A DNA stretch of 64,000 bases. Origin: a virus. Of the stretch, positions 32,157-56,727 are shown one piece after another. A model generated the notes under the pieces. It worked only from the letters and a program-made list of their open reading frames with translations, was not told where the DNA came from and did no database searches. The stretch's first letter is position 1. Every line of letters begins with the position of its first letter. Position numbers and translations under genes: made by a program. The DNA is taken from IMG/VR virus record IMGVR_UViG_3300034102_003113; one strand, written 5' to 3'.

Positions 32157-32684
32157 ATGGATAATGAATTAAGAGTCCCAGAGGGATGGGGATTGGCAGA
32201 GTACGCCGAACCTGGAAAGGATACGGGAAAGACCCAAAAGAATGTTGAGTTGGTTTCTCCTGGTCCTCAATCAGGCGAAGATGATTATCACTCTCAGTAT
32301 GTAGATCCAGAAGGAAAGTTTGGTGCTGCAAAAACAGGACAAGGTGCGTCTAGTCCATCCTCGTATAGTGGAGAGGAGACGGCCCAAGAGGAACCTAAAG
32401 GATCCCAACCTTACGATGTTGGTCAACTCCATCTTGAGGATAAAGAGGTGGTTGTTGAGGATGGAAGACAACGTGGCTATCATTACTATCTAGTCACCCA
32501 TCCAGACAAGGAGTACTTCTACTCAGTAATTCCTAAACTCCGCGGAAACAAAGAGACCTATAAGAGTCCACACAAGTCGACTCGAAAGGAGGCTCTTGAG
32601 GCCGCCTATAAGGTCCTAAATGTTACATTACCCGCCTCTATCTCAGATCAGATGCACTATACCTATCCAGAGAGTGAAATCTGA
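32157..32684 (+). CDS. Acidic hypothetical protein with N-terminal VPEGW tag
   Basis: MDNELRVPEGWGLAEYAE; low-complexity N-half. Confidence 0.7.
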   Translation: MDNELRVPEGWGLAEYAEPGKDTGKTQKNVELVSPGPQSGEDDYHSQYVDPEGKFGAAKTGQGASSPSSYSGEETAQEEPKGSQPYDVGQLHLEDKEVVVEDGRQRGYHYYLVTHPDKEYFYSVIPKLRGNKETYKSPHKSTRKEALEAAYKVLNVTLPASISDQMHYTYPESEI

Positions 32685-32691
32685 TCCAAAC

Positions 32692-32702
32692 TATGATAGA
32701 AT
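32692..32702 (+). promoter_or_regulatory. Extended -10 promoter (TATGATAGAAT)
   Basis: Upstream of nrdB; same 11-mer at 36520 and 62556. Confidence 0.65.
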
Positions 32703-32734
32703 GAAATTCTTTTCTACAGATCCCAGTACCCCCC

Positions 32735-33730
32735 ATGAGTAGCATCCTAGAGCATAACAAGATGATCTTTAAGAAGGACACTGGGTTTGATTTCCCAGAG
32801 TTCTACGACTACTATGAGCGTACAGTGGCAAGTGTATGGCGTCATCAAGAGGTAGCCATGGAATCCGATCTCCGCGATTGGCAATTCAACTCTACACCTG
32901 ACGAGAGGGCTGTTATCGCCGGGATCCTCAAGGGATTTGTTAGCGCAGAGTTGGGAATCGGATGCTACTGGGCAGATGAAGTATGCCGAATCTTCCCCAA
33001 ACCAGAGATTCAGGCTATGGCTAAAGCCTTCTCATTCTTTGAGACTATCCATGCCGCTGCCTATTCCTACCTCAATGATGTTCTTGGACTCAAGGAGTAC
33101 GAGGAATTTATCAACGATCCCGTCACCTGTTCTAAGATCGATACATTTTTCTCTAAGTATCCAGATAAGGTCGCTCTTGCAGTGTTCTCTGGAGCGGGGG
33201 AAGGTGTAAGTCTATTCAGTTCATTTGCTGTGCTCCTTAGCTTCAATAAGGATGGTAGGTACAAGGGTCTGGCTCAGATTATTTCCTGGTCTGCCATTGA
33301 TGAGCAGACTCACTCCGAGGCTGGATGCCAACTCTTCAAGAGATTGGTGGAAGAGACAGGACTATCAGACTCCGATCGCCAAGCCATCTATGAAGGTTTC
33401 CAACTCGTAGTAGACAAGGAATCCTCCTTTATCGACCATATCTTTAACTCAGCGTATATCTCCTCAATCGACGCCAGTGAGTTGAAAGCTTATATTAAGA
33501 ACAGGGCAAATGAACGCCTACTTCTCCTTGGTCTTGACCAGATGTTCAAACTATCAACCGAAGAACTTACAAAGGCTAAATCAATCTCATCTTGGTTTGA
33601 TCCGATGGTCAAAGGGGCAAGTAGCACAGATTTCTTTGCCGCTTCTAAAGATGGTGCTAATTACGTAGCCAAAATCTCCCAAGATTTCATGGCTGTAGAT
33701 CTTTCCGCCTTAGACCTTGTTCTTGTCTAA
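32735..33730 (+). CDS. nrdB: Ribonucleotide reductase class I beta subunit
   Basis: VW..EV.M..D..DW, ETIHAAAY, EGVSLFSSF, DEQTH, DFF motifs. Confidence 0.95.
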   Translation: MSSILEHNKMIFKKDTGFDFPEFYDYYERTVASVWRHQEVAMESDLRDWQFNSTPDERAVIAGILKGFVSAELGIGCYWADEVCRIFPKPEIQAMAKAFSFFETIHAAAYSYLNDVLGLKEYEEFINDPVTCSKIDTFFSKYPDKVALAVFSGAGEGVSLFSSFAVLLSFNKDGRYKGLAQIISWSAIDEQTHSEAGCQLFKRLVEETGLSDSDRQAIYEGFQLVVDKESSFIDHIFNSAYISSIDASELKAYIKNRANERLLLLGLDQMFKLSTEELTKAKSISSWFDPMVKGASSTDFFAASKDGANYVAKISQDFMAVDLSALDLVLV

Positions 33731-33733
33731 GAA

Positions 33734-33889
33734 ATGATCAAAGAACCTATTTGCACCAAGGGTTATTGGGTGGTTGAACTTTCTGATGGTTATCAAATCA
33801 AATTCAATGACGGCGAAACAGCCCAAGATTTTTATCTACTAAATAAAGCTAGAGAAGAACAAATTTATGGCAATCCATCCAAACCCTGA
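33734..33889 (+). CDS. Small hypothetical protein (51 aa, not in ORF track)
   Basis: ATG 4 nt after nrdB stop; MIKEPICTKGYWVVELSDG...; fills the gap. Confidence 0.55.
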   Translation: MIKEPICTKGYWVVELSDGYQIKFNDGETAQDFYLLNKAREEQIYGNPSKP

Positions 33890-34073
33890 CCGAGATGAGT
33901 CTTTGATGATCAAAGACCATGGCACAACATGTCTAATCACTGACATCAAAGCCGATGGATATCTCCGCAGGGCACGAATGAAAAAGAATACAACACCACC
34001 AATCGACCGATACTCTAGACCTTGTGGTGGTAGAGGCGGGTTTGATGACTTTGTGGAGAGATGGCATGAATGA
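33867..34073 (+). CDS. Conserved cyanophage-type hypothetical protein
   Basis: 'PDRD..M...GTT.LITD' pattern recalled from small cyanomyovirus ORFs. Confidence 0.6.
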   Translation: MAIHPNPDRDESLMIKDHGTTCLITDIKADGYLRRARMKKNTTPPIDRYSRPCGGRGGFDDFVERWHE

Positions 34074-34476
34074 CTTTAGAACTCCAGATGGTTGGAGTGT
34101 AAGAGGACGGGAGCAAGGTGGCCGAGATTTCTCAGACTCCAAGGAAATGTGGAAGCAATGGAGAAACTCACCCTATGAGGTAAGTAATAAAGGCCAAGTA
34201 AGACGAAAAGGAAGCGGTGAAGTCCGTAAACCTAGAGACGATGGACGTAAGCATCACAGAGTTAATCTAACTTGGGATGGTAATCGTGAGGAACCAATGC
34301 TCCATCAAATGGTTATGGAACTATTCGGTCCGCCAAAGCCTAAAGGAAAGAATATAGTAATCCTCCATAAAGATAACAATGGAACAAACAACTCCATCTC
34401 TAATCTAAAATGGGGAACTAAGTCAGAGAACGTACAACAGGCGCATGACGATGGGTTAATCGATAACTCAAAATAA
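34066..34476 (+). CDS. NUMOD4-HNH endonuclease with N-terminal PDGW leader
   Basis: WK...YEVSNKGQVR (NUMOD4), HQMVMELF, ILHKDNNGTNNSISNLKWGTKSENVQ (HNH_3); ATG 34066 overlaps upstream stop. Confidence 0.85.
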   Translation: MNDFRTPDGWSVRGREQGGRDFSDSKEMWKQWRNSPYEVSNKGQVRRKGSGEVRKPRDDGRKHHRVNLTWDGNREEPMLHQMVMELFGPPKPKGKNIVILHKDNNGTNNSISNLKWGTKSENVQQAHDDGLIDNSK

Positions 34477-34556
34477 TCGTCCACTAATTAACCAAATAGC
34501 ATTTAACCTAGACGCGGAGTAACAGACCATTACATCTAGGTTAATTTGTTATGCTC

Positions 34557-34567
34557 TATGATAAAAT
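34557..34567 (+). promoter_or_regulatory. Extended -10 promoter (TATGATAAAAT)
   Basis: Upstream of nrdA; preceded by 10-bp inverted repeat 34503-12/34535-44. Confidence 0.65.
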
Positions 34568-34588
34568 TAATTTACCCACTTTGATCAG

Positions 34589-36505
34589 ATGCCAGAACTT
34601 CAAGTACCAGAATGGATGAGTAAGGAAGCCGTGGATACCCTCTCAAGGGGGTATCTATGGAATGCGGAGACCCCCCGTGGGATGTTTGAACGAGTCTCAA
34701 ATCAAGCCGCTAAGATCCTTGAATATCCAGAATTAGCCGATGATCTTTTCGAGGTACTCTGGCGTGGGTTTTTAGGTCTTGCTACTCCAGTAGCCAGCAA
34801 CTTTGGCACGTCTCGTGGGTTACCAATTAGTTGCTACTCAACTCATCTCTCCGACTCGGTCCAGTCCATCTACTCCCACCTCAAGGAAGTCGCTGCTCTA
34901 TCAAAGAATGGTGGTGGAGTAGGAGTATATCTCGGTGACATCCGCCCTTCTGGATCTCCTATTGCCTCTGGTGGGAAGAGCACCGGCATTGTTCCTTGGG
35001 CTCGGCAATATGACCAGTGTGCTTCTGTAGTCAGCCAAGGTGGAGTGAGGAGAGGAAGTTTTGCAATGTATGTCCCTATCGACCACCCTGATCTTGCAGA
35101 GTTGCTCCGCACTAAAGACCACTCTCAAGGTGACCCGCGGGATTTTGTTGATAGCAATATCGCCGTCTCTATCACCGATGAGTGGGTAGAGAGCATGTTG
35201 GCTGGAGATCGTGAAAAGCAAAAGATCTTTGGCGAGGTGCTTAAGGTTCGGATGATCAGCGGGTCACCATACATCATTTATATTGATAATGCCAACCGCG
35301 CCAATCCTGAATGCTATACCCAACGTGGTCTTAAAGTAAGTCTTAGTAATCTCTGTTCAGAGATCTTCCTCCATACAGATGAGAACCATACCTTTGTCTG
35401 CGTACTCAGTTCTATCAACCTTGCCCGATGGGAAGAATGGAAAGACTGGAGAGGAGCAAAAACTGGCAAATCTGTACCTGAGTTGGCCGTGTACCTCCTC
35501 GATGCGGTCGTAGAGGAGTTCTGTCATAAGGGCGATCGCACTGCATCCATGGGACGGAGTGTTCGTTTCGCTCGTAAATCCAGAGCTCTTGGCCTGGGTA
35601 CTATGGGTCTCCATGCACTCTATCAGTCTAAGAATCTTCCGTTTGCATCTGAGGAAGCCCGTGTCCTAAACATCGAGACACATAGATTCATCAAAGAGCA
35701 GGCAATTAAGGCCTCTGAGGAGATGGCAATCAGATATGGCGAACCAGAATGGTGCGAGGGAAGTGGCCGGAGACACACTCACCTGATGGCCATTGCTCCA
35801 ACTCGTTCTAACTCTGTTATCTGCGGAGCTGTGAGTCAGGGCATCGAACCCATCGATGCTAATTACTATGTCGCTAAGCAAGCAAAAGGTACTTTTGTTC
35901 GTAAAAATCCCTACCTTGAAGCGTACCTAGACTCAGTCGGGAAGAACACCGAGGAGGTATGGGAAAGCATATTGGAGTTCAGAGGATCTGTCCAGCATCT
36001 CGATTTCCTATCCGAGGAGACCAAGGGTATCTTCCTCACAGCTCGTGAGATGGACCAGTTTGAACTTGTTAAACAAGCCTCAGATCGTCAACCCTATGTT
36101 TGCCAAGGGCAATCCCTCAACCTCTTCGTAGACCCTGAGTCCTCCCCAGAATATCTCTTCAAGCTCCACCTAAGTGCCTGGAAGGGTGGCCTGAAGTCCC
36201 TTTATTACCTCAAGAGTAGTTCTTTACTCGTCAAGAGAAAGAAACTCGAGACGGTATCTAAGACCGCAAAAATCATCACAAAGGAAACTTGCCCTTATTG
36301 CACCATGGCAAAGTCCCTGCTCAAAGCAAAGGGATACAAGATTGAGGAGATTGATCGCGCCAATGTGCCTGACTCTGAATTCCCCTACCGCACTGTGCCT
36401 CAGATCTGGATCAATGGACAGTACATTGGTGGATACACAGAACTGGCAGAGAAGATTGGCACTCCAGAAAAACAATATGGTGAGTGTACTGCCTGCGAGG
36501 GTTGA
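34589..36505 (+). CDS. nrdA: Ribonucleotide reductase class I alpha subunit with inserted glutaredoxin domain
   Basis: ATPV, PISC, GGGVG, SQGGVRRG, SNLCSEI, AIAPT, KSLYY; then CPYC/TVPQI Grx; terminal CTAC. Confidence 0.95.
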   Translation: MPELQVPEWMSKEAVDTLSRGYLWNAETPRGMFERVSNQAAKILEYPELADDLFEVLWRGFLGLATPVASNFGTSRGLPISCYSTHLSDSVQSIYSHLKEVAALSKNGGGVGVYLGDIRPSGSPIASGGKSTGIVPWARQYDQCASVVSQGGVRRGSFAMYVPIDHPDLAELLRTKDHSQGDPRDFVDSNIAVSITDEWVESMLAGDREKQKIFGEVLKVRMISGSPYIIYIDNANRANPECYTQRGLKVSLSNLCSEIFLHTDENHTFVCVLSSINLARWEEWKDWRGAKTGKSVPELAVYLLDAVVEEFCHKGDRTASMGRSVRFARKSRALGLGTMGLHALYQSKNLPFASEEARVLNIETHRFIKEQAIKASEEMAIRYGEPEWCEGSGRRHTHLMAIAPTRSNSVICGAVSQGIEPIDANYYVAKQAKGTFVRKNPYLEAYLDSVGKNTEEVWESILEFRGSVQHLDFLSEETKGIFLTAREMDQFELVKQASDRQPYVCQGQSLNLFVDPESSPEYLFKLHLSAWKGGLKSLYYLKSSSLLVKRKKLETVSKTAKIITKETCPYCTMAKSLLKAKGYKIEEIDRANVPDSEFPYRTVPQIWINGQYIGGYTELAEKIGTPEKQYGECTACEG

Positions 36506-36519
36506 TCTAAGCCCAAATC

Positions 36520-39555: not shown

Positions 39556-39855
39556 ATGGATAAGAGACTTTCTACGCAAGATTACATGGAGATCCTGAAA
39601 AAGAAACGTCAGGATGGAACATATGACTACGCTGATCGAGTCTTTTATAAGGGCAAAGTAATGCTTAAATGCCCTCCAGGAGCTACTAAACTTGGCAATA
39701 CCTGCGTCCCATCAGCCGCTGCTACTGCAAAGGGTGCTGGTCCAGGAAAAACATGGCAAAAAGATCTCGGAGGCATTAATCCTCAACAAGTTCAACAATT
39801 AGGTGTCGCAAAAACATCCAAAGATATAAAAAAAGCTAGAGAAAAGAATGGATGA
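39556..39855 (+). CDS. Small basic protein with CPPG..CVP module
   Basis: 99 aa, late motif upstream. Confidence 0.6.
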   Translation: MDKRLSTQDYMEILKKKRQDGTYDYADRVFYKGKVMLKCPPGATKLGNTCVPSAAATAKGAGPGKTWQKDLGGINPQQVQQLGVAKTSKDIKKAREKNG

Positions 39856-41002
39856 TCCGCTTATCATCACAAACGGAAAGTTTTCTATCTCAATTGAGAC
39901 AAAAAAATCTCTAAAGAATGTAAACTTTGGAGCAGGATCTATTACTCTACGCCCAGGTAAACCCAAAGAAGCTACCCAGTGGTACGACGTAAATAACAGA
40001 CAGGTATATAAACGTCCGAGCGGGCACTGGAGTTATACTAATCCAGAACAATCTAAAAAAAGCCTAGAGAAGAGAATGTCTAGCGCCTATGACCGTAATG
40101 CCGGATCATCAAGTGCGCAAAAACCCTCTGCTCAAGGGACAAAAACATCAGCGCACACTCTCTCCGAGAATCTAATCAAGGATTTATTACTGACTAAGAA
40201 CGATAGTTCTAAAGTTAAACTTAAGGGGATTTTTGAATCCGAGATTAATAAATTAGAATCGGATGATAAAACAAAAAGAGACTGGATTGACTCCACTTAC
40301 AATTCAGCACAAGCGATTCAAACTTACTTAGATAGTAGTGGAGAACAAATAAAAAACATAGATTATGTCGGGAACAAAACTCAATCAGAAGAGTTTTACA
40401 CAGCGGATATAATCATACAAACAGATAAAAGAAAATTAGGAGTTTCCTTAAAGAAAACTGGAAACGCTAGGATGTATAATACATCTATTAACAAAGATAA
40501 TAGAGTCCAAGAGTTCTTTGCTGCCCAAGATGATCTGTTAAAGAGATTTGTACCTCAAGGGACAAAGTTAAATAGAAAGCTCAGGAAAGAAATTTTTAGT
40601 AATAACAAAAATCAAAAAATAGACGGATTGACTCTAGAGAAACATCTCTCTAATCTAAGAGTGGATCTACAAAAAAATTTAAAAGATGACATTGACAATG
40701 TACTAGGCTCTAGTAACATAGTAGGTAAAGTACAAAAGATATTCAATGCCATTAATAAAAACACACTAATACTCGTGTCCAATAAAGATGTGATTGACTC
40801 TTCTAATTTAAAAAAATTAGGGCAAAATCACCTCGAACCAAGACACGCTAACGACGGATCTAATTTTATATATTACGGGAATACGGCCGTAGCTAGATTA
40901 GGTATCCGTCAGGACGGAATGGGTTATGGAACTTCGATAAAACTAGAAGCCAATTTCACCCAACAATTTATTCGTGAATTAACAAAGAATACCAATGATT
41001 GA
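39848..41002 (+). CDS. Putative PD-(D/E)xK endonuclease
   Basis: HTLSE helix, then TADIII...GVSLKK core; Lys/Asn-rich, AT-rich gene. Confidence 0.6.
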   Translation: MDDPLIITNGKFSISIETKKSLKNVNFGAGSITLRPGKPKEATQWYDVNNRQVYKRPSGHWSYTNPEQSKKSLEKRMSSAYDRNAGSSSAQKPSAQGTKTSAHTLSENLIKDLLLTKNDSSKVKLKGIFESEINKLESDDKTKRDWIDSTYNSAQAIQTYLDSSGEQIKNIDYVGNKTQSEEFYTADIIIQTDKRKLGVSLKKTGNARMYNTSINKDNRVQEFFAAQDDLLKRFVPQGTKLNRKLRKEIFSNNKNQKIDGLTLEKHLSNLRVDLQKNLKDDIDNVLGSSNIVGKVQKIFNAINKNTLILVSNKDVIDSSNLKKLGQNHLEPRHANDGSNFIYYGNTAVARLGIRQDGMGYGTSIKLEANFTQQFIRELTKNTND

Positions 41003-42127: not shown

Positions 42128-43404
42128 TGCCTATTCCCTCCTACGATTACACTTCATCCCTACTCGAAGATGTATTTGAGCCCGTCATCGATCCTTATTG
42201 TCCGGTTGTCGTTATTGATTTCAAAGTATACGCTCATGCCATTAATAAGTACGCTGAGTTGGCTTCGGAAGTTGCTAGGAATGATGATGAGTTAAAGACA
42301 ATCATGAAGGCCATGTGGGCCTATAAACTCAACCGGGGACCTGACATGCTCCAGTCATTCCCCTTTGTTGGATTGATTGTAGATGACCTTAAAGGCCAAT
42401 TTGAGCCAGAGTTTTCTGAGGCATCTACCACTGGAGTTGGGTATTGGAGGCATATCGAAGCTCATAAGATTAATCTTGCAGAGTACAAGGGTGGTAGAGG
42501 AGAAAAAACGCCGTTCTTCTACCTAACAGAGGCCGCCGGGTATGAATACATTCTCTCCCAAGGCTCCACCTTCCCCTACTTTGCTAAGGAGTTCTTTGAG
42601 GCAGATGATATTGCAGGACATATCTGCAGACTGAAAAGAAAAGCCAAAAAGAACTCTGTATTAGCCCAAAGACAGATCATCCTCTCCACGGTGGATGGGG
42701 ACTGGCAAGGACTTGTATCCGACTCTCATGATATTGTCTGGGCCAATACCGGCCCATGGCTCCCTCGCCTCCGTTCTGAGACAGAAGTTTGCGATTACTA
42801 TCTCCGCAAAGACAAACTAATTATCGACTCCGCCTATGGTTGCTATACTGTAAAGGAGAAGGTCGGTGATGCCGGAGATAACCTTATGCCTGGAACACCA
42901 CTGCGATTTTTTGACTTATACAATGAAGATTCTGAATGGCGTTTTACAAAAGAAGACACCCAAGCCATATCAAAAGTACTTAACTCTGACACTCCTTCAA
43001 ACAGGGAAGATCACCTACAATCCGCAAAAAAATTTCTCTCCTCTAAGGGACTTTTCATGCCAGAGATTGGTGAGACCCAGTATGATGAAAAACAATTCTT
43101 CTTCTCAAAAGCAAAGAAGATTCGCGTTGAAAACTCTCATCCAGAGTTGCGTGGGAGGAACAAAACTTTATGCCTTGGCGTCGCGGATCAAGCAGAAGTT
43201 TTTAACAAATGCAAGGAATTAGCGCTCCAACAAGAGGAGTTAAAGCAACAGATCAAAGAACATACTGACCAGGTTGCCAAATGCAAGGAAGAGGAGGATA
43301 AAAAATGCGTCAAAGACCTCAGGTTAACAATCAAATCCCTCAAGGAACTCCGAGATTCAGTTGTAAAGGACTTTAAAGAACTCGTTAATCTCCTAGACGA
43401 CTGA
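42127..43404 (+). CDS. 5'-3' exonuclease (FEN/T4 RNase H-like) with C-terminal coiled coil
   Basis: YWRH..YKGGR, EADDIAG, STVDGDWQ, GDAGDN. Confidence 0.85.
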   Translation: MPIPSYDYTSSLLEDVFEPVIDPYCPVVVIDFKVYAHAINKYAELASEVARNDDELKTIMKAMWAYKLNRGPDMLQSFPFVGLIVDDLKGQFEPEFSEASTTGVGYWRHIEAHKINLAEYKGGRGEKTPFFYLTEAAGYEYILSQGSTFPYFAKEFFEADDIAGHICRLKRKAKKNSVLAQRQIILSTVDGDWQGLVSDSHDIVWANTGPWLPRLRSETEVCDYYLRKDKLIIDSAYGCYTVKEKVGDAGDNLMPGTPLRFFDLYNEDSEWRFTKEDTQAISKVLNSDTPSNREDHLQSAKKFLSSKGLFMPEIGETQYDEKQFFFSKAKKIRVENSHPELRGRNKTLCLGVADQAEVFNKCKELALQQEELKQQIKEHTDQVAKCKEEEDKKCVKDLRLTIKSLKELRDSVVKDFKELVNLLDD

Positions 43405-46630: not shown

Positions 46631-46638
46631 GTTTAAAG
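46631..46638 (+). promoter_or_regulatory. Putative late promoter GTTTAAAG
   Basis: Exact motif ~34 nt upstream of ATG 46673. Confidence 0.65.
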
Positions 46639-46672: not shown

Positions 46673-48622
46673 ATGCCGGGCCGCGAAGACCTCATACAAC
46701 AGAATAGAGCAGCGACCCGTGCCAGAGTAGAAAATGCTGGTGAACAGGCATCGGTAGGTGGTGAGAAACCAATATACTCCTCCCATCGCAGTCTTCTTGG
46801 CGGAAATTTAGATGTTGCATCAGCGCTTGAGAGCATTGAGTTTTCAATCCAGGGGCCTCTGGGTGATGGCGCCTTACGTAACTCAGTTGCTTATATTCGC
46901 TATTGGAGCCGTCCAGGGACTAAAGCATCGGCAGAAACAACCTCGCAGACTATCGATGCAACACAACTCGATCCTGCTCTTGACCCCCAATTACAAACTG
47001 CCGAGCAATTAAGAAATGCATGGTATGATGGAGGAGAGTTACCAGATAATACAGTAATAGAGTATTCTACTTCTCTACCTGGCGAGGTAGATGCGGCAGA
47101 CTGGTATACTGTCTCGACAGGAGTAGAAAGAGATGGGGATGGAAATATACTCAGAGGAATAAGTCAGACTGTTTTCTCTGCCCCGAATAAGGACCGGCAG
47201 ATTGCTCTTTCAAAAGAGATCCCCACAACCAAAGCAGGTACAGGAAGCGCAAATACAAGCATAGTTGCAAACTCCTCAGAAGTTGATAATGGTTCATCTC
47301 CAGCAACTAGGTCAGGAAATGCCGGAGTAGGGCAACTTAAACCGGCGAATCCTAACGGATTTGTAAATACCGTGTCGCGGATAGGAAGAAGTGTACTTGG
47401 ACTTCCTCCTGGGCAGACAGGGTATCAGGGGGCGGCTGGATCGGCTCAAGGTGGCAAGGCACCTCTGGCAAAGAGCGGCACTTTTTCTAAGGGAATGTGG
47501 CAGTTCCTATTTAATCCTTCCGAACTAGAGATTGAAGCAGGTCCAGAGTTTAAAGCAGCAGAGACATGGGGTGTTAGCGACAAGGGTAATTCTGGCCAAC
47601 CTCTTAACTGGAGCCATAATAAAAATACTCAACTCAAGTTTAATTCTGTGCTCCTCAATGGATATGTATTTGGACGCAAGGTAGAGGAGTTAGAGCAAGG
47701 TATCTTTGAGCTCTTTATGGCCAGAGATGGTGAAGGTCAGGCTGGACCCCCTATCCTTGAGTTTGTATGGGGGAAGAGAGTGTTTGGCCCATGTGTGATT
47801 AAGGATATTTCCATCAAAGAAAAGATGTGGGATGAGGGGATGGTTGTCAATGCAGAACTTTCCTTTACCCTTGAGCAGATTCCTGAATGGACGATTAATG
47901 ACGGATATGTAGATGTGGCTAGACCTGGCCGGATCCCTATGGTCAACGATGCTACTGAATCCGGTCCTGTTGGAGTAGGAAGTACTGTTCCTTCTGGTAC
48001 TCCTTCAGATCCTGGAAGTCCAGATTCTCCATCTCAAAAACCACCTGCTCCGGCGGGTTCAAAGTCTGGAGATGGGAAGTTATGTGATTGGGCATTAAAT
48101 ATTAGTAAACAATTTCAGCAATTATATGTAAGGGTAAATAATCCCCTAACTGCGGCAGCATTCGGTAATTTTAATAGTCAAGTTTCACAATTCTATTCGC
48201 TTAAAGGATCTTTATATTCTGGGTCTAGTGAGATTGGAAGTTATGTAGATACAAAAGTTGCTTCTGGATGCAAAAGGTCTTCTTACCAAGCAACTACAGA
48301 AAATATTAAAAAGACCGGCGGAGGTTTCTCTCTCAATGGGGGTTTAATAAGTGCTGAACAACAAACAATTCAATTTATAAGAGAATGTACCGCATCAACT
48401 AAAAGAGCAATAGATGAATGGCAAAGAACATCCCCTAAATGTAAACCACAAAGAGTTGTTGGACAAGCTGCGCGGGTAAGTGAAGCACAAAATACTGCTT
48501 GTGCTAAATATTCAGGTAAATGTTCTACTCCAAATGAAAGATTCGGTACTACTGGTCAGTGTCCTCAAGTTAATAATGGACGTGGAGTTATATGTTCTGG
48601 AGGAGTTTGGACTCCATTATAA
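46673..48622 (+). CDS. Tail tube initiator (CIS-tube/gpU-like domain) with Cys-rich extension
   Basis: FLFNPSEL...PPILEFVWG..CVIKDISIKE...AELSFTLEQ. Confidence 0.7.
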   Translation: MPGREDLIQQNRAATRARVENAGEQASVGGEKPIYSSHRSLLGGNLDVASALESIEFSIQGPLGDGALRNSVAYIRYWSRPGTKASAETTSQTIDATQLDPALDPQLQTAEQLRNAWYDGGELPDNTVIEYSTSLPGEVDAADWYTVSTGVERDGDGNILRGISQTVFSAPNKDRQIALSKEIPTTKAGTGSANTSIVANSSEVDNGSSPATRSGNAGVGQLKPANPNGFVNTVSRIGRSVLGLPPGQTGYQGAAGSAQGGKAPLAKSGTFSKGMWQFLFNPSELEIEAGPEFKAAETWGVSDKGNSGQPLNWSHNKNTQLKFNSVLLNGYVFGRKVEELEQGIFELFMARDGEGQAGPPILEFVWGKRVFGPCVIKDISIKEKMWDEGMVVNAELSFTLEQIPEWTINDGYVDVARPGRIPMVNDATESGPVGVGSTVPSGTPSDPGSPDSPSQKPPAPAGSKSGDGKLCDWALNISKQFQQLYVRVNNPLTAAAFGNFNSQVSQFYSLKGSLYSGSSEIGSYVDTKVASGCKRSSYQATTENIKKTGGGFSLNGGLISAEQQTIQFIRECTASTKRAIDEWQRTSPKCKPQRVVGQAARVSEAQNTACAKYSGKCSTPNERFGTTGQCPQVNNGRGVICSGGVWTPL

Positions 48623-48628
48623 TAAATT

Positions 48629-51600
48629 ATGGCAACTTCATCAATAATCCTAGATATACGGGCTAATACACAGAGGGCTCTTAGTGAGTTCAAAACGTTC
48701 TCATCCCAACTTGATAATAAATTCCTAGTATCTGGACTTAAACTCGATGTAGTTCGCAATGCGCTTTCCCAAATCAACCGTGAGTTCCAAAAGAGTCTAG
48801 GGGAACAAGGACTAGCCTCAGCGCAATCTCTTAAAGCCGCAGAGAACCAAGCCACGATTCTAACCAATATCTACGCCGGATTCAGCAAAACAGCATCTGG
48901 TCGTATTGTCGAGGACTTTTCATCGGCTCTTAATCTAGTAGCCACAAGAACTGGATCCACGGTTTCTGATATTCAGAAAACCCTAGCAGTATCACCCTAT
49001 CTTTCTAGGGATTTGTCGCAGGGCATCAGGCAAAATATCCTAGTAGATATTCAAAATCTCCAAACCGCTGCTCGTAGAGCCGGACTTGGTGGCAACACTG
49101 CTGATATCCTTAATAAGTTCTTGACTGGGCAGACAGGTGGCCAAGAACTCCAAGAATCTGGGGATACACTCTCCAAGATGCTCGGTGCGGAACTAAGTAG
49201 AGTTGGTGGTGGAGTTGGTACAGAGACAATGTCTCTTACTGAGAGAACAAGGATTCTCCGCGCTGCTCTAGCAAATATAGACATTGAGGGATTCGCCAAA
49301 GAAACTGGCGGATTTAGGGCCGTATTAGAACAATTCTCGGCATCTCTCTTCAATCCAAAAGCTGGCCTTCTCGGCGCGATGAGGGAATTCGTCTTAAAGA
49401 CTGGCGAGGCTCCAACTACTATTTTTAAAGAAACTACAAAACTTTTTGAGAGTATCTTTGGCGAAGAAGGATTTATTAAAACACTGAGCCGAGAACTTGC
49501 CAAAGCATTTGGTATTAGGGGCGAAGACACGGCCATAAGATTCTTAGGCAGAGGGATTCGGTTTATTACCAATCTCATCAATGGTGCTAAAAATCTAATC
49601 GATGATATTCTCAATACTCCAATAGTCCGTAAAGTCGCGGAAATAATCAGATCTGCTTTTGATGGTATTGTAGGATTCTTAAGGAAGCTTGAAGGTATTG
49701 CCAATAATCCTCCAGACTTCCCAGATATCTCAAAGGAGAGCATCCAGACATTCATCCGAGAGATCGGAGAAAATGTGCGTGGATTCTTACGTAAAGTAGG
49801 AGCATTTATTCGCGGAGAGGACATTTCCGATGAAGCAAATACTGGGGCATCAATTGTTGGTACAATTGTCGATGAGGCTGGTAAAACCATGCTCACCTTC
49901 TTCAAGGAAGTTGGTGATGCCTTATTGGCTAAAACCGGCACCATTGCCCTCGAACTTGCTAAAGTCCTTCCAGGAACCATTGCTGGGGTTATTGCCAAAG
50001 GACTGACAGGAGCAGGAGGGATTACAGGATTTATACTTTCAGCTCTTGGGGTAGGAGGGCTGGGACTAGGCGCCTCAAGAGCCTTTGGTGGATTTAGGAG
50101 AGGTGTTCTTGCTGGAGAAGGTGGGATTCCAGGCGCAGCAAATAGATTCTTAGGATCTCCTTTTGGCCCATTAAGACCAAGAGCCAGGGTTACTGGAAGT
50201 GGCCGAACACGTGGAGGCGGAGGAACCATCCCACCTGACCTAGATGACCTGATCTCTTCAGTAAGAGATACACCCGATAGATATTCATTAGATCCGATGT
50301 TCCAAAACATTCGCGAAACTAATGAATTAAATAGATTCAATAGAGAGTTTGCTCAGTCCCAACAACAATTCAGAGACCGTGAATTCTTCCAACGCCGCAT
50401 GGCTGAAGATAGATTTGGTAGTGAAGGCCCTCTAAGAAAAGGAATGTCTCAGTTTGGCAGTTCTCAATACTTAACACAAATAGGTCCTCTTCCAATGGAA
50501 TCTGCCGAACCATGGACAATGGCAAATGGCAGGTACCAACCCTACATGGGGGACGTTAATGAAGAGGCCATACTAGAAGGTCGTAGGAGAGAAATAGCAC
50601 GTAGACAAGCGCTTGGAGGAAGAAACCCCCTTACAAGTGTTGGTCGGAATCTATTAGGCACTTCTGGACTCGATGCATGGGATGGAGGTTGGGATAGAAG
50701 TCGTGGTAATATTGCCGCAAGATTTAATAGAAGATACGGATCTGGTGGTACTAGAGTTGTGATGAGAAGCGGGATTGGTAGACTTGGAGCAAGGATCGGA
50801 GGTGGTGTTAGGGGTATTGGGAGTTATTATCGCGGAGGCGGAGGTGCTGGGATTACTGGATTGGCAGGTGCTGGTATTGCTCTTGGTGGTACTATGCTCG
50901 GAGAGAGTATGGGAGGTGAAACCGGTGAGAATATAACTGCTCTCAGTCAAATCGGTGGAGGAGTTCTTTCTGGCGCTTCTACTGGGGCGATGATAGGCTC
51001 TATCATTCCTGGCATTGGAACCGCAGCCGGGGCGGTGATCGGTGGGGTGATTGGTGGCATAGTCCCATTCATGGACAAGGGGGTAAGAGATGCCGTGGGT
51101 AGATTTGTGGGGGATCTCGGTCGATCTATGACAGAAGGCGGGAAGTCGATTGCCAGCGCCATCTCCGGTGGTATTCGTAATATCCAAAATGGATGGAATT
51201 CTGTAACAACTACAGTACAGGAGTCTGTAACCAAGCTTTTACCTCAGAAAATCACAGAGACCCTAGAGTTCTTTACAAAAGAAATTCCTAAAAAACTCAA
51301 GGATTTTGCTGGAGGTATAGGAACATCTATGATGAATGCAATTACCAACTTTGACCTAGGTAAGAATATTCTAGATGCTCTTAATTTTGTTAAGAATAAA
51401 CTTCAAGGTCGGGAAGTAGGTGGTCCGGTTATTAAGGGTACTTCTTATATCGTTGGGGAGAGAGGCCCAGAAATCTTCACACCAAGTCAATCTGGTTCTA
51501 TTACCACTAATAGAGATCTAAACTCCCTGGCATCTAGATCTGGTGGAGGTGGAGGATCTTCTAATGTTGTATTTAATATAACTATTAATGCTACTGGGCT

Positions 51601-51712
51601 TGCTGGCAACGATATTGCTGCTGCAATTCAACCTGCAGTAATACAAATTTTAGATAATGGAATGAAACAAGCCTCTTCAAATATTGTAACTAGAGGAACT
51701 ACAGTGATATGA
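48629..51712 (+). CDS. Tail tape measure protein
   Basis: Helical Ala/Gly/Ile-rich; GAMIGSIIPGIGTAAGA; REVGGPV..YIVGERGPE C-terminal motif. Confidence 0.85.
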   Translation: MATSSIILDIRANTQRALSEFKTFSSQLDNKFLVSGLKLDVVRNALSQINREFQKSLGEQGLASAQSLKAAENQATILTNIYAGFSKTASGRIVEDFSSALNLVATRTGSTVSDIQKTLAVSPYLSRDLSQGIRQNILVDIQNLQTAARRAGLGGNTADILNKFLTGQTGGQELQESGDTLSKMLGAELSRVGGGVGTETMSLTERTRILRAALANIDIEGFAKETGGFRAVLEQFSASLFNPKAGLLGAMREFVLKTGEAPTTIFKETTKLFESIFGEEGFIKTLSRELAKAFGIRGEDTAIRFLGRGIRFITNLINGAKNLIDDILNTPIVRKVAEIIRSAFDGIVGFLRKLEGIANNPPDFPDISKESIQTFIREIGENVRGFLRKVGAFIRGEDISDEANTGASIVGTIVDEAGKTMLTFFKEVGDALLAKTGTIALELAKVLPGTIAGVIAKGLTGAGGITGFILSALGVGGLGLGASRAFGGFRRGVLAGEGGIPGAANRFLGSPFGPLRPRARVTGSGRTRGGGGTIPPDLDDLISSVRDTPDRYSLDPMFQNIRETNELNRFNREFAQSQQQFRDREFFQRRMAEDRFGSEGPLRKGMSQFGSSQYLTQIGPLPMESAEPWTMANGRYQPYMGDVNEEAILEGRRREIARRQALGGRNPLTSVGRNLLGTSGLDAWDGGWDRSRGNIAARFNRRYGSGGTRVVMRSGIGRLGARIGGGVRGIGSYYRGGGGAGITGLAGAGIALGGTMLGESMGGETGENITALSQIGGGVLSGASTGAMIGSIIPGIGTAAGAVIGGVIGGIVPFMDKGVRDAVGRFVGDLGRSMTEGGKSIASAISGGIRNIQNGWNSVTTTVQESVTKLLPQKITETLEFFTKEIPKKLKDFAGGIGTSMMNAITNFDLGKNILDALNFVKNKLQGREVGGPVIKGTSYIVGERGPEIFTPSQSGSITTNRDLNSLASRSGGGGGSSNVVFNITINATGLAGNDIAAAIQPAVIQILDNGMKQASSNIVTRGTTVI

Positions 51713-52230
51713 TAGACTTACCTCAGATAACGTCAAGAGTTGATACTTCTGATCTTCAGAATATCAAGAACCAATTAGCCTTACGTGATAGAATTAATGC
51801 TGATAGGTATGAAAATAACCAACTCGAGAGAAAAAATCCTAGCGTAATCTTCTCAGAACAATCTGGTCTGTCATTAGCAGACACTGCCCTACGTGGTCTT
51901 AAATACCCACTTGAGTTGAATGGCAAAGGAGGATTGAAACTCTCTTCTAATTACGATCGAGTTGGTGAACAAATACTCGAGGTACTACAGACCAGAATCG
52001 GAGAAAGAGTCTATAGACCATTTTTTGGCATCCCAGAACTTCTCTTTGAGACCATTGATGAGAGTACATTAGCTCAAACAATCCGTTCACAGATAGGTTC
52101 AGTAGTGCCCTCAGGTGTGGAATTAGAGGTTAAAGTATCCTTATCCGAAGATGGTGGAGCTCAGATCGTAGTATTCTACTCTGTCGAAGGAAGCCAACCA
52201 TCTCTGATTAAATACGCATTTAGACCATGA
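51709..52230 (+). CDS. gp25/gpW-like baseplate wedge (sheath initiator)
   Basis: GLKYPL, VLQTRIGERVYRPFFG. Confidence 0.9.
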   Translation: MIDLPQITSRVDTSDLQNIKNQLALRDRINADRYENNQLERKNPSVIFSEQSGLSLADTALRGLKYPLELNGKGGLKLSSNYDRVGEQILEVLQTRIGERVYRPFFGIPELLFETIDESTLAQTIRSQIGSVVPSGVELEVKVSLSEDGGAQIVVFYSVEGSQPSLIKYAFRP

Positions 52231-52652
52231 GTCGCATACAAAGAAACTTTTCTCAGTTTGGTGCTGATGCTCAGCAGATGATCATCGACCAAATCCAGTC
52301 CATAGACCTTGAGAAAATTGGACCAAAATCAATCGCCCACGTTGGCAAAACCCTAATCTCTCTAGTTAAGCAATCCCACCAACTCCAAGAAGATGTAGAG
52401 GAAGAGGAAGTGCGGGATAACTGGATTACTATCCGTGAACTCTCCCACATACTTCTCGTGGAGATACTCGATAAGTTTAAAGAGTTAAGTGCCCTTGGTG
52501 AAATCCCTGAATGGGAGAGAGCAAACGTCCTCAATCTGCTCCAAGAGATCACAAAAGTCTGCCACGCAGAAGAAAAACGAGATGCCCTTTCCGAGATCAA
52601 CACCGGCAAAATCATCGATGACAAAGTACTTGATGAGATGCTAGGATTATGA
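52227..52652 (+). CDS. Hypothetical helical protein
   Basis: 141 aa, ATGA-coupled. Confidence 0.6.
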   Translation: MSRIQRNFSQFGADAQQMIIDQIQSIDLEKIGPKSIAHVGKTLISLVKQSHQLQEDVEEEEVRDNWITIRELSHILLVEILDKFKELSALGEIPEWERANVLNLLQEITKVCHAEEKRDALSEINTGKIIDDKVLDEMLGL

Positions 52653-52813
52653 TGAACATTGATCAGGCTAGAGCAGGCGGAGAGGGAATGCTTTCTGCTT
52701 CTGTTAAGAAAGAAGAAGAAGAGGACATGACTGAAGGCCCTGATCTCTTCCAAAGTAAAGAGCAAAAAGTCCAGATCGAAGTCCCAGAAGGTTGGCACTC
52801 TAAGGAGCCTTGA
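52649..52813 (+). CDS. 54-aa micro-protein with C-terminal VPEGW tag (not in ORF track)
   Basis: MMNIDQ...EEEEDMTE...QIEVPEGWHSKEP; ATGA-coupled, fills gap exactly. Confidence 0.75.
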   Translation: MMNIDQARAGGEGMLSASVKKEEEEDMTEGPDLFQSKEQKVQIEVPEGWHSKEP

Positions 52814-52814
52814 G

Positions 52815-53018
52815 ATGCCCCGCGAATGGAACACCCCGGTAAGAGAACACTGGAACGCTCCAATTCATAATATACTCAAAGCAATAGATAATCACACCCA
52901 ACTCTACTTTAAGACTGGGGATAAGTGGCATGTAGATCAAGCAAATTTCTTAAGAAGCTATGTGTCCGATTTGAAAACATGGATACATAAGGAGGAAGGG
53001 AATCAGTTTAAGGATTAG
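52815..53018 (+). CDS. Conserved cyanophage-type hypothetical protein
   Basis: MPREWNTP.RE.WNAPIH..LKAIDNH pattern recalled from cyanophages. Confidence 0.7.
   Translation: MPREWNTPVREHWNAPIHNILKAIDNHTQLYFKTGDKWHVDQANFLRSYVSDLKTWIHKEEGNQFKD
53006..53013 (+). promoter_or_regulatory. Putative late promoter variant GTTTAAGG
   Basis: ~23 nt upstream of ATG 53037. Confidence 0.55.
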
Positions 53019-53036: not shown

Positions 53037-55424
53037 ATGCCTTTAAAACAAGGATCCTCGGACAAGGTAGTCCAAGATAATATTCGCTGCATCTTAGACA
53101 AAGATGGGTGCGGATATGATCCGCCGTATAAAGACCCGGCTAGAGAGCAATATACTCCAGCCCAGGCTGCGGCTATTGCCTATGCAAAAGCAGGGCGGAG
53201 GAACAACACGGGTAATAAAACCTCTGCATCTAAAAAAACTAAGAGTGTAAAAACCCAAGAGATCAAGACGCCTGAAGCGAAGAAGGAAGAGCCAAAGTCT
53301 CCCGCTCAATCCGCAAAACCTGAAACTGAAACTGATACAAAAAAACCTGGTTCTGATATCCAGATCCCTGAAGGGTGGACAACACAAAAACCCGGAGGGG
53401 ACACTAGTACCTCAAAAAAGAACCAACCGCCTGAGAAGGAGAAGGACGAACTTTCTCCTGAGGCGGACAAGCAGATGCTTGACGAGGTGATGGAAGGGTA
53501 TAAGATGAAGTGGGGCAACAGTGCCTCATTACTTGGCGATGCGTGGGATACGTATGATGCTAAGCAAAAGAAAAAGTTCCTTGCTAATGCAAAGAAGATA
53601 AAAGCAGAGGAACAGGCCAAACAGAATAAAGAAGATAAAAATAGTCCGCCTGCTTCTACGCCCGCGCCCGCACCTGCATCTGCACCAACCACGGAAGCGA
53701 CTCCTCAGTCAGCACCGACTCCAACTCCTACTACTGGAGGTGGAGATGCTGGGGATGCTGATAAGAAGCCTCAGGTTGCTGATGGATGGAAATCAAAAGA
53801 TGATGGTTGGACAACTCATCTAAAGCCAAAGTTTGATGGGGATAATATTAACTACCAGAATAAAGTATATAAACCAACAAAGACTTTACCAGGATCTACC
53901 AATCCTAAACTCTACTCAGACGAAGAAGGTAAACCCAAGTTTGTTGTGAAAGAGGGTGGTGCTAAAGGCCAGAATGATGCGGAATACGCTGCTAACCAGG
54001 TCTATGGCATTCTCTCCCCGCATCTTCCCACCGGTGCCATAAAATCAAGACTCATTGATGGTAAGTTGGTTAATGACTTTATGCCCAACTCTAAAACTGT
54101 TAATGATCTCAGCGAGGATGAGTTAAATAGATACGATGTAAACTCTAAAGTAAGAAAGTCTCTCGCTGCTGACGCGTTAGTCGCCAACTGGGACTATGCT
54201 GGACTTGCAAATGATAATATGATGGTCGATGGCCAGGGTAGAGTACTAAGAATCGACTCTGGTGGGACATTTAATTATAGAGCACAGGGTGAACAGAAAG
54301 ACTTTGATTCGGTGCCTATGGAGATGTGGACACTCCGCTCCAGCACCCAAGGCAAACAATTCTGGGGTAATGCTCAAGAAGAAGATTATGAAAATCTCTG
54401 GAGAGACCAAGTTGCTTATATTGGTCTAGAAGGAAATAAACTTAAGAGCACCATAGCAAATTCAAATCTACCGTCAGAAGTCAAAGAAGCTTTTGGTAAA
54501 AGGGTGGATATTCTTTCAATCGCTGCCCAAGAGGCGAACAATATCGCCAAAAGAGACGGTGTCTCATGGAAGGGAGTAGATCAAGTGATGGAGAGAGCGT
54601 TTAGATACGCCTCCGCTATGAATTCAAAAAATCCTAACTGGGGTGATCTTGTAAGAAACAAAATTCGTGGTGATTTAGAGAAAGCGTTCCCTGAGCAAGC
54701 TCCAAAACTTGACTTCAATCTCCCCACCAACTCTAACAAGTATAACGAGTCAAATTACAAACAAACTGTTAAGGCAGTAGATAATCAATTAAATAGTTCC
54801 GATGCTGGGTATTATGGAGGAGATCCAGATGCTGTAAAACAAATCTCCCCAGAAGCAAAATACGCCTTGAGGGAGTATAGTGGATCTCTATACCAGGATT
54901 TAAATGCCATGGTAAGAGGAAAGACAAAATCTTTCAATGATAATGATATAAAATTCTTCAGTCAGATTGTTGATGTAATGGATGAAAGTTTAGATCAAAT
55001 ACCTGATCATCCAAATGTAGGTATGTTCTATAGAATGAATAAGATTTCTAATAAATATACCGACGACGTTGATGCGCTTAATAACTTAAAACCTGGAGAT
55101 ACATATGTATCTAAAGGATACTCTTCTTACACAGATGACCATGAAGGAGATGAGAATAACAGAAATGAGATACTTGATTCTTTCTATCATGGTAGTACAT
55201 CTAAGACAAACTTTATAACCATTTACCAAGGAAAGAATATAAAAAATATCGCTCCTCTATCAGATATTCAAAACGAGAGAGAATCACTCATGCAAAGAGA
55301 TAAAAACCTTAAAGTTGCAAGTATTAAGGAAGAATCGATTAAAGATTGGCCAAATATCAGCTGGGGAGGCAATGAAACTATGACCGGTAAGATTAAAGTT
55401 ATCTATCTTACAGATGCTGATTGA
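53037..55424 (+). CDS. Multidomain effector: disordered leader + PI3/4K/HipA-like kinase + VIP2/Alt-like ADP-ribosyltransferase
   Basis: Kinase: GST loop, FVVK, AEYAA, DALVANWD..N, RIDSG. ART: Y...Y..LN..R, FYR, GYSSYT, QNERE. Confidence 0.8.
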   Translation: MPLKQGSSDKVVQDNIRCILDKDGCGYDPPYKDPAREQYTPAQAAAIAYAKAGRRNNTGNKTSASKKTKSVKTQEIKTPEAKKEEPKSPAQSAKPETETDTKKPGSDIQIPEGWTTQKPGGDTSTSKKNQPPEKEKDELSPEADKQMLDEVMEGYKMKWGNSASLLGDAWDTYDAKQKKKFLANAKKIKAEEQAKQNKEDKNSPPASTPAPAPASAPTTEATPQSAPTPTPTTGGGDAGDADKKPQVADGWKSKDDGWTTHLKPKFDGDNINYQNKVYKPTKTLPGSTNPKLYSDEEGKPKFVVKEGGAKGQNDAEYAANQVYGILSPHLPTGAIKSRLIDGKLVNDFMPNSKTVNDLSEDELNRYDVNSKVRKSLAADALVANWDYAGLANDNMMVDGQGRVLRIDSGGTFNYRAQGEQKDFDSVPMEMWTLRSSTQGKQFWGNAQEEDYENLWRDQVAYIGLEGNKLKSTIANSNLPSEVKEAFGKRVDILSIAAQEANNIAKRDGVSWKGVDQVMERAFRYASAMNSKNPNWGDLVRNKIRGDLEKAFPEQAPKLDFNLPTNSNKYNESNYKQTVKAVDNQLNSSDAGYYGGDPDAVKQISPEAKYALREYSGSLYQDLNAMVRGKTKSFNDNDIKFFSQIVDVMDESLDQIPDHPNVGMFYRMNKISNKYTDDVDALNNLKPGDTYVSKGYSSYTDDHEGDENNRNEILDSFYHGSTSKTNFITIYQGKNIKNIAPLSDIQNERESLMQRDKNLKVASIKEESIKDWPNISWGGNETMTGKIKVIYLTDAD

Positions 55425-55430
55425 TTAACC

Positions 55431-55583
55431 ATGACAAAACCCTACGAAAAACTAACAGACGCCCAGAAAAAACGCCTTGCTATGAGAAGACAAGCGCTAG
55501 ACGATGATAGTACCGATGCTTTCTTTGAGATACAAAAAACAAAACCACAACCCCCTGAAGGTTGGAAGGAGCAAGGGAAATAA
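55431..55583 (+). CDS. 50-aa micro-protein with C-terminal PPEGW tag (not in ORF track)
   Basis: MTKPYEKLTDAQKKRLAMRR...PQPPEGWKEQGK; fills gap. Confidence 0.7.
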   Translation: MTKPYEKLTDAQKKRLAMRRQALDDDSTDAFFEIQKTKPQPPEGWKEQGK

Positions 55584-55586
55584 TTA

Positions 55587-55594
55587 GTTTAAAG
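55587..55594 (+). promoter_or_regulatory. Putative late promoter GTTTAAAG
   Basis: Exact motif ~22 nt upstream of ATG 55617. Confidence 0.65.
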
Positions 55595-55616
55595 GACTAT
55601 ATACATAGTCCCTATC

Positions 55617-56261
55617 ATGCCTCTCAAAGAAGGATCCAGTCAAGAGACTATCTCTGGCAATATTAAGCGCGAGATGGAATCTGGCAAACCACAAAAACAG
55701 GCCATCGCCATTGCATTAGACAAAGCTGGGAAGTCTAACCGCAACTCAGCCGACTCAGCCGAACCCGAAGAGGGACAAATGGCCCAGGGTGATGTCCGTG
55801 CAATCATGGCCATGGCTCAAAAGATCGATGGCATGGTCTCAGAAATGACTGACCTTCCTGAGTGGGTCCAGGCTAAAATCACAAAAGCCCAGGATTACCT
55901 ATCTGCAGTTACCCAACACCTTGCCCATCCTGGTGAAGATGAACAGGCTGAGGATATGGCCGAAGGTAAAGACCAAGACAATGATGGGGATGTAGACTCT
56001 GAAGACTGGAAGATCTCTCGTGATGAGGCTATTAAAGGAGCCATGGGAGACGAGGAGACTTCTGATAATGCCGAAGACTCCGATCCTTGTTGGAAGGATT
56101 ACGAGATGGTGGGGATGAAGAAAGGCCAAGGTGGTAAACCAGTACCCAATTGTGTGCCTAAGTCATCTGATAATGGCGAATGTGAAGAATGCTCAGATGA
56201 ATACTCTGAGGTGTCTGTGCCAGATGGTTGGTCGGTGAGTTCTAATGTCTACAAAGATTAA
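55617..56261 (+). CDS. Modular acidic protein (putative internal head protein), C-terminal VPDGW
   Basis: MPLK.GSS module, [12 protein letters not shown] module, CWK.Y..VG.KK..VPNCVP module joined by acidic linkers. Confidence 0.7.
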
Positions 56262-56279
56262 TGTGCCAGATGGTTGGTC
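56217..56279 (+). repeat. 17-bp direct repeat GTGCCAGATGGTTGGTC encoding VPDGWS in two overlapping genes
   Basis: Copies at 56217-56233 and 56263-56279. Confidence 0.85.
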
Positions 56280-56727
56280 AGTAGACCCCACCTTCGGTGA
56301 AATTCCATCTCCGTATGATAAGAAACAGCATCTTGAGGGGCAACAAGATAAGTCCCAGATGCTAGAAGATGAGATAGATCCGTCTGAAGAAGCGGATATG
56401 TCTGAAGATGAGTATGAATACTGGAGATCTATTGCCACTGGTCAACCAGAGACATCCAATGAAGCAAATCAGGCAAATTATGCCGATGATGGTAAAAAGT
56501 ATACTCACACCTACAAAGATCCTAAAACAGGTAATACTCGCAAGGTTCGTTATGGGGCCAAAGGTTACTCTATTGCCCCCGGCACCAAGAAAGGTGATGC
56601 CTACTGTGCCAGATCCTTGGGAGACATGAAGTCAGAAGGGATGGATTGTTCCGGCCCAGATCGAAATACTCCAATGTGCCTCTCACGTAAAAAGTGGAGA
56701 TGTAAAGGCGCTAAATCTTCTAGGTAG
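56245..56727 (+). CDS. Protein with N-terminal VPDGW, acidic leader and basic Cys-containing C-domain
   Basis: [13 protein letters not shown]; [23 protein letters not shown]...KKWRC. Confidence 0.7.

Follow-up and report, generated by a model that had tools for sequence, protein, structure and literature searches.

A five-residue peptide tag with the working consensus [I/V/L]-P-[E/D]-G-W was found near the ends or in flexible linkers of seven proteins encoded in a 64,000-nt stretch of viral DNA (IMG/VR record IMGVR_UViG_3300034102_003113), hereafter called the window. The tag is very likely a functional, portable docking motif, and a single partner common to its carriers is likely. Loading of the tagged proteins into the virion was the best single reading of the data, a serious possibility that falls a little short of probable; packaging and injection of the enzymes among them would be part of it. 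The seven carriers were encoded at the following positions of the window.

32157..32684, plus strand: 175-aa protein with the tag at residues 8-11 (codons 32178-32189)
34066..34476, plus strand: homing-type endonuclease (NUMOD4/HNH_3), gene flanked by nrdB and nrdA; tag at residues 7-10 (codons 34084-34095)
52649..52813, plus strand: 54-aa micro-protein with a C-terminal tag (codons 52784-52795), orthologue of gp067 of cyanophage S-TIM5
53037..55424, plus strand: 795-aa putative cargo protein with the tag (codons 53367-53378) in a low-complexity leader of ~270 aa
55431..55583, plus strand: 50-aa micro-protein with a C-terminal tag (codons 55554-55565), kept in the relatives L001 and L002
55617..56261, plus strand: 214-aa protein A, encoded by the first half of a split gene and tagged at the C-terminus (codons 56220-56231)
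56245..56727, plus strand: 160-aa protein B, second half of the split gene, with an N-terminal tag (codons 56266-56277)

The carrier genes lay at two sites. At the first, the 32157 gene and the HNH gene adjoined genes of nucleotide metabolism. The second was a cluster downstream of genes for two large virion proteins, a tail-lysin-like protein and a gp25-like baseplate protein, followed on its other side by a membrane protein, an endolysin, a MoxR-like AAA+ ATPase and then a DUF2201_N metallopeptidase/vWA protein. The N-terminal ~70 aa of the 32157 protein were orthologous to S-TIM5 gp094, an annotated virion protein, and the HNH carrier matched Pfam HNH_3 (3.4e-10) and the HNH families of PHROG. 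The 795-aa protein consisted, in this order, of an MPLK-type N-domain (phrog_2423), the leader, a middle domain with no family assignment and a C-terminal ADP-ribosyltransferase (ART) domain, and also contained two degenerate tag copies (ADGW, 53778-53789, and DDGW, 53799-53810). Its C-terminal domain is assigned by profile recognition to the Alt-like/exoenzyme ART family (Pfam ADPrib_exo_Tox PF03496, E 1e-9, 38.4 bits vs a cut-off of 23.4; Alt-like PHROG 802, 1.5e-4). Protein A combined an MPLK N-domain, an acidic linker and the Cys motif CW..GY..VPNCVP with its C-terminal tag, while protein B carried its N-terminal tag ahead of an acidic linker and a Cys-rich C-domain. In a structure model of protein B of low confidence (mean predicted local distance difference test (pLDDT) score 50.7), the tag was not confidently packed on its own domain and formed no strand.

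P[ED]GW occurred nine times in the window proteome (20,593 aa of called genes), compared with 0.14 copies expected from composition (Poisson 5e-14). PEGW was the top over-represented 4-mer of this proteome (six observed vs 0.07 expected, p 1.7e-10) and PDGW also ranked high (three vs 0.07). A six-frame scan of the window returned eight copies on the plus strand and one on the minus strand, all within plausible genes. The degenerate DNA pattern CCNGANGGNTGG matched nine times, compared with 0.42 in shuffled sequences. A DNA-level motif was ruled out, since all nine matches were in the coding frame and the third codon positions differed among the copies within the window and between relatives; the signal is thus the peptide. 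The two copies beyond the seven carriers were internal to larger proteins:

14790..14801, minus strand: DPEGW inside the large terminase (TerL), a lineage-specific internal copy absent from S-TIM5 TerL
59072..59083, plus strand: VPEGW inside the MoxR-like AAA+ ATPase (58718-59713), in a folded region

The TerL copy is probably due to chance, and the ATPase copy probably stands outside the tag system.

The seven carrier tags were situated at most ~15 residues from a terminus or in a hydrophilic linker (three N-terminal, three C-terminal and one linker copy). Their flanks were hydrophilic and rich in disorder-promoting residues, whereas the TerL and MoxR copies were surrounded by folded sequence of average composition. 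The tag thus has the properties that define a short linear motif: it is 3-10 residues long, lies in disordered context, forms a conserved island and recurs on unrelated proteins. A preliminary description of the window had listed the same seven instances, placed each at a terminus or in a linker, estimated well under one chance copy, and read the synonymous codon variation as selection on the peptide. The present counts bear out all of these points and add the two internal copies. The scan of the genome and its relatives that it had proposed likewise showed enrichment, disorder-promoting flanks and retention in orthologues. As a separate observation, the large subunit of ribonucleotide reductase (34589-34610) began with MPELQVPEW, a tag-like N-terminus without the Gly, and PEW itself was over-represented in the window proteome (seven observed vs 0.9 expected).

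Conservation was examined in four IMG/VR relatives (L001-L004), S-TIM5 and S-TIM54; the record behind L003 is a complete 159-kb genome (G001). No near-identical DNA was found among cultured phages, and the relatives were reached by protein search. The window TerL was 65-69% identical to the terminases of the cyanophages S-TIM5 and S-TIM54, and the window shared its gene order with S-TIM5 over the segment that starts at the tail fibre, includes nrdB, HNH and nrdA and ends at the MoxR ATPase. On these grounds of sequence and synteny the window is assigned to an uncultured TIM5-like cyanomyovirus. In the four IMG/VR relatives, the tag was present at every orthologous position, with E/D swaps and changed flanks, in carriers down to ~39% identity. 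Synonymous third-codon changes at the tags were seen in the relatives, including G001, S-TIM5 and S-TIM54. The complete genome G001 gave 11 DNA matches compared with one in the reversed control, and nine of the 11 fell within real genes, at positions corresponding to those in the window. The full S-TIM5 genome contained seven copies, five of them terminal (gp094, HNH gp089, gp067, gp066 and gp065) and two internal (DNA polymerase and ATPase). The HNH tag was kept in the orthologues of S-TIM5, G001 and G002, and that of the 795-aa protein in L001 and L002/L003. The preliminary description had named a lack of conservation in orthologues as a finding that would speak against its proposal; the tag was kept in L001-L004, G001, S-TIM5 and S-TIM54.

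Two carrier families were sampled widely, with 97 homologues of protein B and 42 of the 32157 protein (139 in total). Exactly one PxGW was present in 92 of the 97 B homologues, of which 88 had E or D at position 2 and 83 had I, V or L at position -1. The remaining five comprised two near-variants (PEDW and PDDW) and three truncated gene calls. In the 32157 family, PxGW was present in 42/42 sequences (E/D at position 2 in 37, I/V at position -1 in 41), and P8, G10 and W11 were invariant across the 31 sequences of alignment A4. In both families, the essentially invariant P, G and W formed an island within a variable, indel-rich leader, almost always once per protein. The distant myovirus S-CBWM1 had five copies, all internal to larger proteins, and lacked terminal tags, and a T4-like cyanophage control gave three DNA matches in 244 kb. 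The terminal tags are therefore specific to the TIM5-like lineage.

The tag also persisted through rearrangements of its carriers. In L004, the ART domain followed a different leader (starting with MSTEIKVPEGW) rather than the MPLK-domain leader of the window, and the tag was kept. With copies at the N-terminus, the C-terminus and in a linker, and with retention across this change of leader, the earlier proposal that the tag is portable and usable at either end holds. Proteins A and B correspond to the two halves of one undivided gene in distant relatives. In P0099 and P0101, the CW..GY..VPNCVP motif known from A and the C-domain known from B were joined in one protein without a tag, and P0088, also an A-B fusion, had a single tag, located in the linker. 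The gene of TIM5-like phages was split with a conserved overlap of 17-20 nt, and a tag was present on each new end. Such a pair of tags would be accounted for if each polypeptide needs its own address, and is not expected of a cleavage site. At the DNA level, the junction was flanked by a repeat:

56216-56233 and 56262-56279, plus strand: exact 18-nt direct repeat with one copy on either side of the A/B junction; each copy encodes the tag, the two in different frames

The two copies of this repeat were not identical at the DNA level in relatives. Fused relatives without PxGW shared another conserved N-terminus, M-x-L-T-P-x-x-x-R-G-D (also in L019, 1519-2530), which is possibly a lineage-specific counterpart of the tag.

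The expression context linked most carriers to morphogenesis. The late-type motif GTTTAA(A/G)G was present 23-42 nt upstream of the starts at 32157, 46673, 53037 and 55617, in the following boxes:

46631..46638, plus strand: GTTTAAAG box heading the operon 46673-53018, which has the tagged micro-protein as its last member
32127-32134: GTTTAAAG box upstream of the 32157 gene
53006 and 55587: further boxes in the window

The preliminary description had placed six of the seven tags behind this motif, in agreement with these boxes and with the lack of a box of its own for the HNH gene. In S-TIM5, the GTTTAAAG box lay 26-51 nt upstream of the portal and sheath genes and ~15 other virion-annotated genes, and it also preceded gp094, gp079, the gp071-gp067 operon and gp066/gp065. 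Co-regulation of the carriers other than HNH with morphogenesis genes is thus supported. Across the S-TIM5 genome, 22 of the 38 GTTTAA(A/G)G boxes preceded the start of a co-oriented gene by 26-51 nt, in most cases a virion-labelled one.

Several observations connected the carriers with the particle itself. In the S-TIM5 record, gp094 and gp067 were labelled as virion structural proteins, a label given to ~6 of roughly 100 S-TIM5 proteins of that size (a rough count from the record tables). The virion-labelled S-TIM5 gp079 began with the variant APEDWG, and its orthologue in the relative G003 began with VPDGWG. Three parts made up the 54-aa micro-protein: its N-terminus (MMNIDQAR...) nearly duplicated that of the major capsid protein (MMNLDQVR...), a charged, variable linker followed, and the C-terminal part bore the tag. 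The N-terminal consensus of the major capsid protein family was M..N.DQAR..DP[IV]LT, and in six frames of the whole S-TIM5 genome the pattern was present at only two sites, both of them gene starts. The pattern was located at:

52649-52675 of the window
2455-2478 of L024, minus strand
42629-42652 of S-TIM5, minus strand
152552-152575 of S-TIM5

A short-word tblastn search with the carriers against all of S-TIM5 returned only tag-to-tag matches and the match to the capsid N-terminus. Judged by its sequence, the micro-protein looks like a mimic of the capsid N-arm joined by a variable linker to the tag, that is, an adaptor. A further connection was the N-domain MPLK..GSS..NI..G.PQKQA.AIA (phrog_2423), which was common to the ART protein (53037-53170) and protein A (55617-55750). 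In Obolenskvirus phages of Acinetobacter, the same domain constituted a 68-aa gene (L025, 4001-4207) whose immediate downstream neighbours were the head protease-scaffold and capsid genes. This 68-aa gene was partly hidden under the annotated start of the protease.

Two loci were considered as sources of a phage-encoded partner:

52227..52652, plus strand: 141-aa all-helical protein, gene translationally coupled to that of the tagged micro-protein
58718..60876, plus strand: MoxR-like AAA+ ATPase and DUF2201_N metallopeptidase/vWA-like protein, downstream of the A/B genes in every relative examined

The 141-aa protein was the most conserved gene product of the carrier cluster and is a candidate partner or chaperone. 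It was confidently modelled as a helical bundle (pLDDT 82.5), and an Atlas feature search yielded only weak small-terminase-like leads. As its only fold relative in PDB and BFVD was its own S-TIM5 orthologue, it was not retained as a recognisable chaperone or hub. The ATPase and DUF2201_N/vWA pair is an alternative candidate. In S-TIM5, gp056, the positional orthologue of the DUF2201_N and vWA-like protein (59710-60876), was labelled as an HNH endonuclease, which looks like a misannotation. A phage Hsp20 is unlikely as the partner, for the window had no Hsp20 gene at its otherwise conserved position between the endolysin and the ATPase and yet kept all of its tags.

Taken as a mechanism, the tag would be a short linear docking motif composed of a hydrophobic residue in a strand, a turn formed by Pro-x-Gly and a Trp as anchor, carried on flexible ends or linkers once per polypeptide by accessory proteins of TIM5-like cyanomyoviruses. 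The tagged set comprises the two micro-proteins, the 32157/gp094 family, both halves of the split Cys-rich protein, the kinase-like/ADP-ribosyltransferase protein and the HNH endonuclease, with all but the HNH protein expressed from late-type promoters. During morphogenesis, the tag would tether these carriers to one conserved phage-encoded partner, by which they would be incorporated into the particle. The head would be the more likely site, and the enzymes would then be available for delivery with the DNA. A more specific version, which we consider doubtful as it stands, is a bidirectional encapsulin-like peptide that binds a conserved site in the head (capsid or scaffold) and loads a defined set of payloads, the ART and even the homing endonuclease among them, for co-injection, with the capsid-mimicking micro-protein as adaptor.

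Several points weigh against loading into the virion. No binding partner of the tag was identified among the candidates considered. The virion status of gp094, gp067 and gp079 is that of the annotation in the GenBank record, which presumably goes back to virion proteomics, and S-TIM5 gp066, gp065 and the HNH protein gp089 carried no virion annotation. The tagged micro-protein closes an operon with baseplate- and tail-lysin-like genes, so the tail is possible instead of the head. Position 2 of the tag was sometimes S, A, Q, N, K, R or T; an acidic residue is preferred there and is not essential. Finally, the HNH gene was situated in the nucleotide-metabolism cluster without a late box of its own, a poor fit to a purely structural role. 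As this carrier has neither late box nor virion label, it points either to packaging of the endonuclease or to a partner that is not purely structural.

The alternatives differ in what they make of these points. The tag could have no common partner at all and be a small structural turn that spread as leader modules were duplicated and recombined, retained for some local benefit, for example the capping or protection of flexible ends. Modular spread is visible in the ~13 residues shared around the tag by S-TIM5 gp094 and gp067, in the exact 18-nt repeat at the A/B junction, and in the MPLK domain and a KPG..Y..G..K..GRW module common to several proteins, and the MoxR and DNA-polymerase copies show the same turn inside folds. 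We nevertheless regard this explanation as rather unlikely, as P, G and W were essentially invariant over the 139 sampled homologues within fast-evolving, gapped leaders, at either terminus and once per chain, which is the signature of a binding motif, and as the DNA copies diverged synonymously between relatives, which argues against ongoing homogenisation. It is also unlikely, slightly more so, that the tag docks its carriers onto a host protein after infection by mimicking a host short linear motif in the manner of an effector, whether the carriers are packaged or not. The cargo includes an ADP-ribosyltransferase and a kinase-like domain, which are typical of host-takeover proteins, and the micro-proteins, being little beyond the tag, could be competitive binders. 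The carriers, however, were placed behind the morphogenesis-type box and not with early genes, some of them are annotated virion components, one copies the capsid N-terminus, and no such host motif was found in the searched literature.

A role as recognition element for the MoxR-like ATPase and the DUF2201_N metallopeptidase/vWA protein would make the tag a signal for processing, remodelling or degradation, acting in maturation or timing and not in packaging. The vWA adaptors of MoxR ATPases commonly bind short exposed segments, the pair was located downstream of A/B in the window, L001-L004, S-TIM5, S-TIM54 and the distant contigs L018 and L019/L020, and the non-structural HNH carrier would be accommodated. 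Against this, a mere cleavage site need not persist on both new ends after the A/B split, the acidic position was not invariant, which argues against coordination of the metal-ion-dependent adhesion site (MIDAS) type, and such pairs are widespread in phages without the tag, so that we judge the idea about as unlikely as docking onto a host protein. For the A/B junction only, the duplicated tag could mark the take-off and landing points of a translational bypass or a frameshift and so give rise to an A-B fusion protein, given that the copies were 46 nt apart (55 nt in S-TIM5) in different frames and that fused homologues exist. This is highly improbable: B had its own conserved ATG with an upstream purine-rich GGTGAG, the 17-nt overlap was conserved, nine sense codons followed the first copy before the stop where in T4 gene 60 a stop comes directly, the DNA copies were not kept identical in relatives, and the other five carriers would be left unexplained.

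Other features of the carrier region were observed alongside the tag. The genes for a 67-aa Trp-rich protein (52815-53018), the ART protein (53037-55424) and the 50-aa micro-protein (55431-55583) were together absent from S-TIM5 and look like one inserted module, in which the small genes flanking the ART gene may encode a partner of the enzyme that confers immunity or acts as its chaperone. Immediately after the tagged genes, a 137-aa protein and then a 424-aa lysozyme/peptidase were encoded (56820-58504). The orthologues of the 137-aa protein in S-TIM5 and L018/L019 had an N-terminal membrane helix and an acidic tail, and the two genes are a probable holin-endolysin cassette. A second leader module, KPG..Y/W..D/N..G..V/L.K..G.W, recurred before unrelated domains, namely in the 384-aa protein at 39848, the middle domain of the ART protein, the ART protein of L004, the S-TIM5 virion protein gp079 and the kinase-like S-TIM5 protein gp208. 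Its sites were:

39848-40050 and 53800-53880 of the window
10470-10620 of L004
138720-138860 and 17229-17370 of S-TIM5

If the partner is a virion component, the tag would make it possible to tell by sequence alone which proteins a widespread lineage of ocean phages injects, explain both the conservation of tiny open reading frames and their presence in particles, and provide a minimal handle for loading proteins into phage particles. A head-loading peptide, should it prove true, would offer a naturally occurring five-residue handle by which foreign proteins could be loaded into a tailed phage. S-TIM5 can be cultured on Synechococcus WH8102.

T4 heads, encapsulins and contractile injection systems are known to use portable targeting peptides. 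To our knowledge, no tailed phage has been reported to use a sharp five-residue tag that marks a whole payload set at either protein end, and a full-text literature search returned no mention of the motif in a relevant context. The core hydrophobic-Pro-x-Gly-Trp is shared with the N-terminal signature L-P-x-G-W-E of WW domains, which have two Trp residues 20-22 residues apart. The tag lacked both a second Trp at the right spacing and the three-stranded fold of ~35 residues, and a WW domain was ruled out, with no Pfam WW match at E<5 and with C-terminal tags that ended 5-10 residues after the Trp.

With the capsid-targeting sequence of T4 and its packaged Alt, the tag would share the principle that a short portable peptide on unrelated proteins directs them into the particle, with an ADP-ribosyltransferase among the cargo. 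The T4 sequence occurs solely at the N-terminus, spans about 10 residues, is cut off by the prohead protease and does not resemble the tag in sequence, whereas the tag of the window was found at the N-terminus, at the C-terminus or in a linker, is thus not confined to the N-terminus as in T4, and is not known to be cleaved; the comparison is an analogy only. The extracellular contractile injection systems PVC and AFP and type VI secretion markers such as MIX resemble the tag in having a shared marker motif on unrelated effectors. The payload genes of PVC and AFP also lie beside contractile-tail and baseplate genes, encode disordered leaders and have an AAA+ ATPase gene nearby. Unlike these systems, the carrier here is a DNA-containing phage, in which tail loading is only one option, and the PVC, AFP and type VI signals known to us are N-terminal and have no sharp five-residue consensus. 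The best formal analogy is with the cargo-loading peptides of encapsulins, which bind the inside of an HK97-fold shell. These peptides are of the GSL type and so differ in consensus, and the shell here is a phage capsid resembling lambda gpE. Like them, the tag was a short conserved peptide on a flexible, disordered linker, located at either terminus of unrelated proteins and present once per chain.

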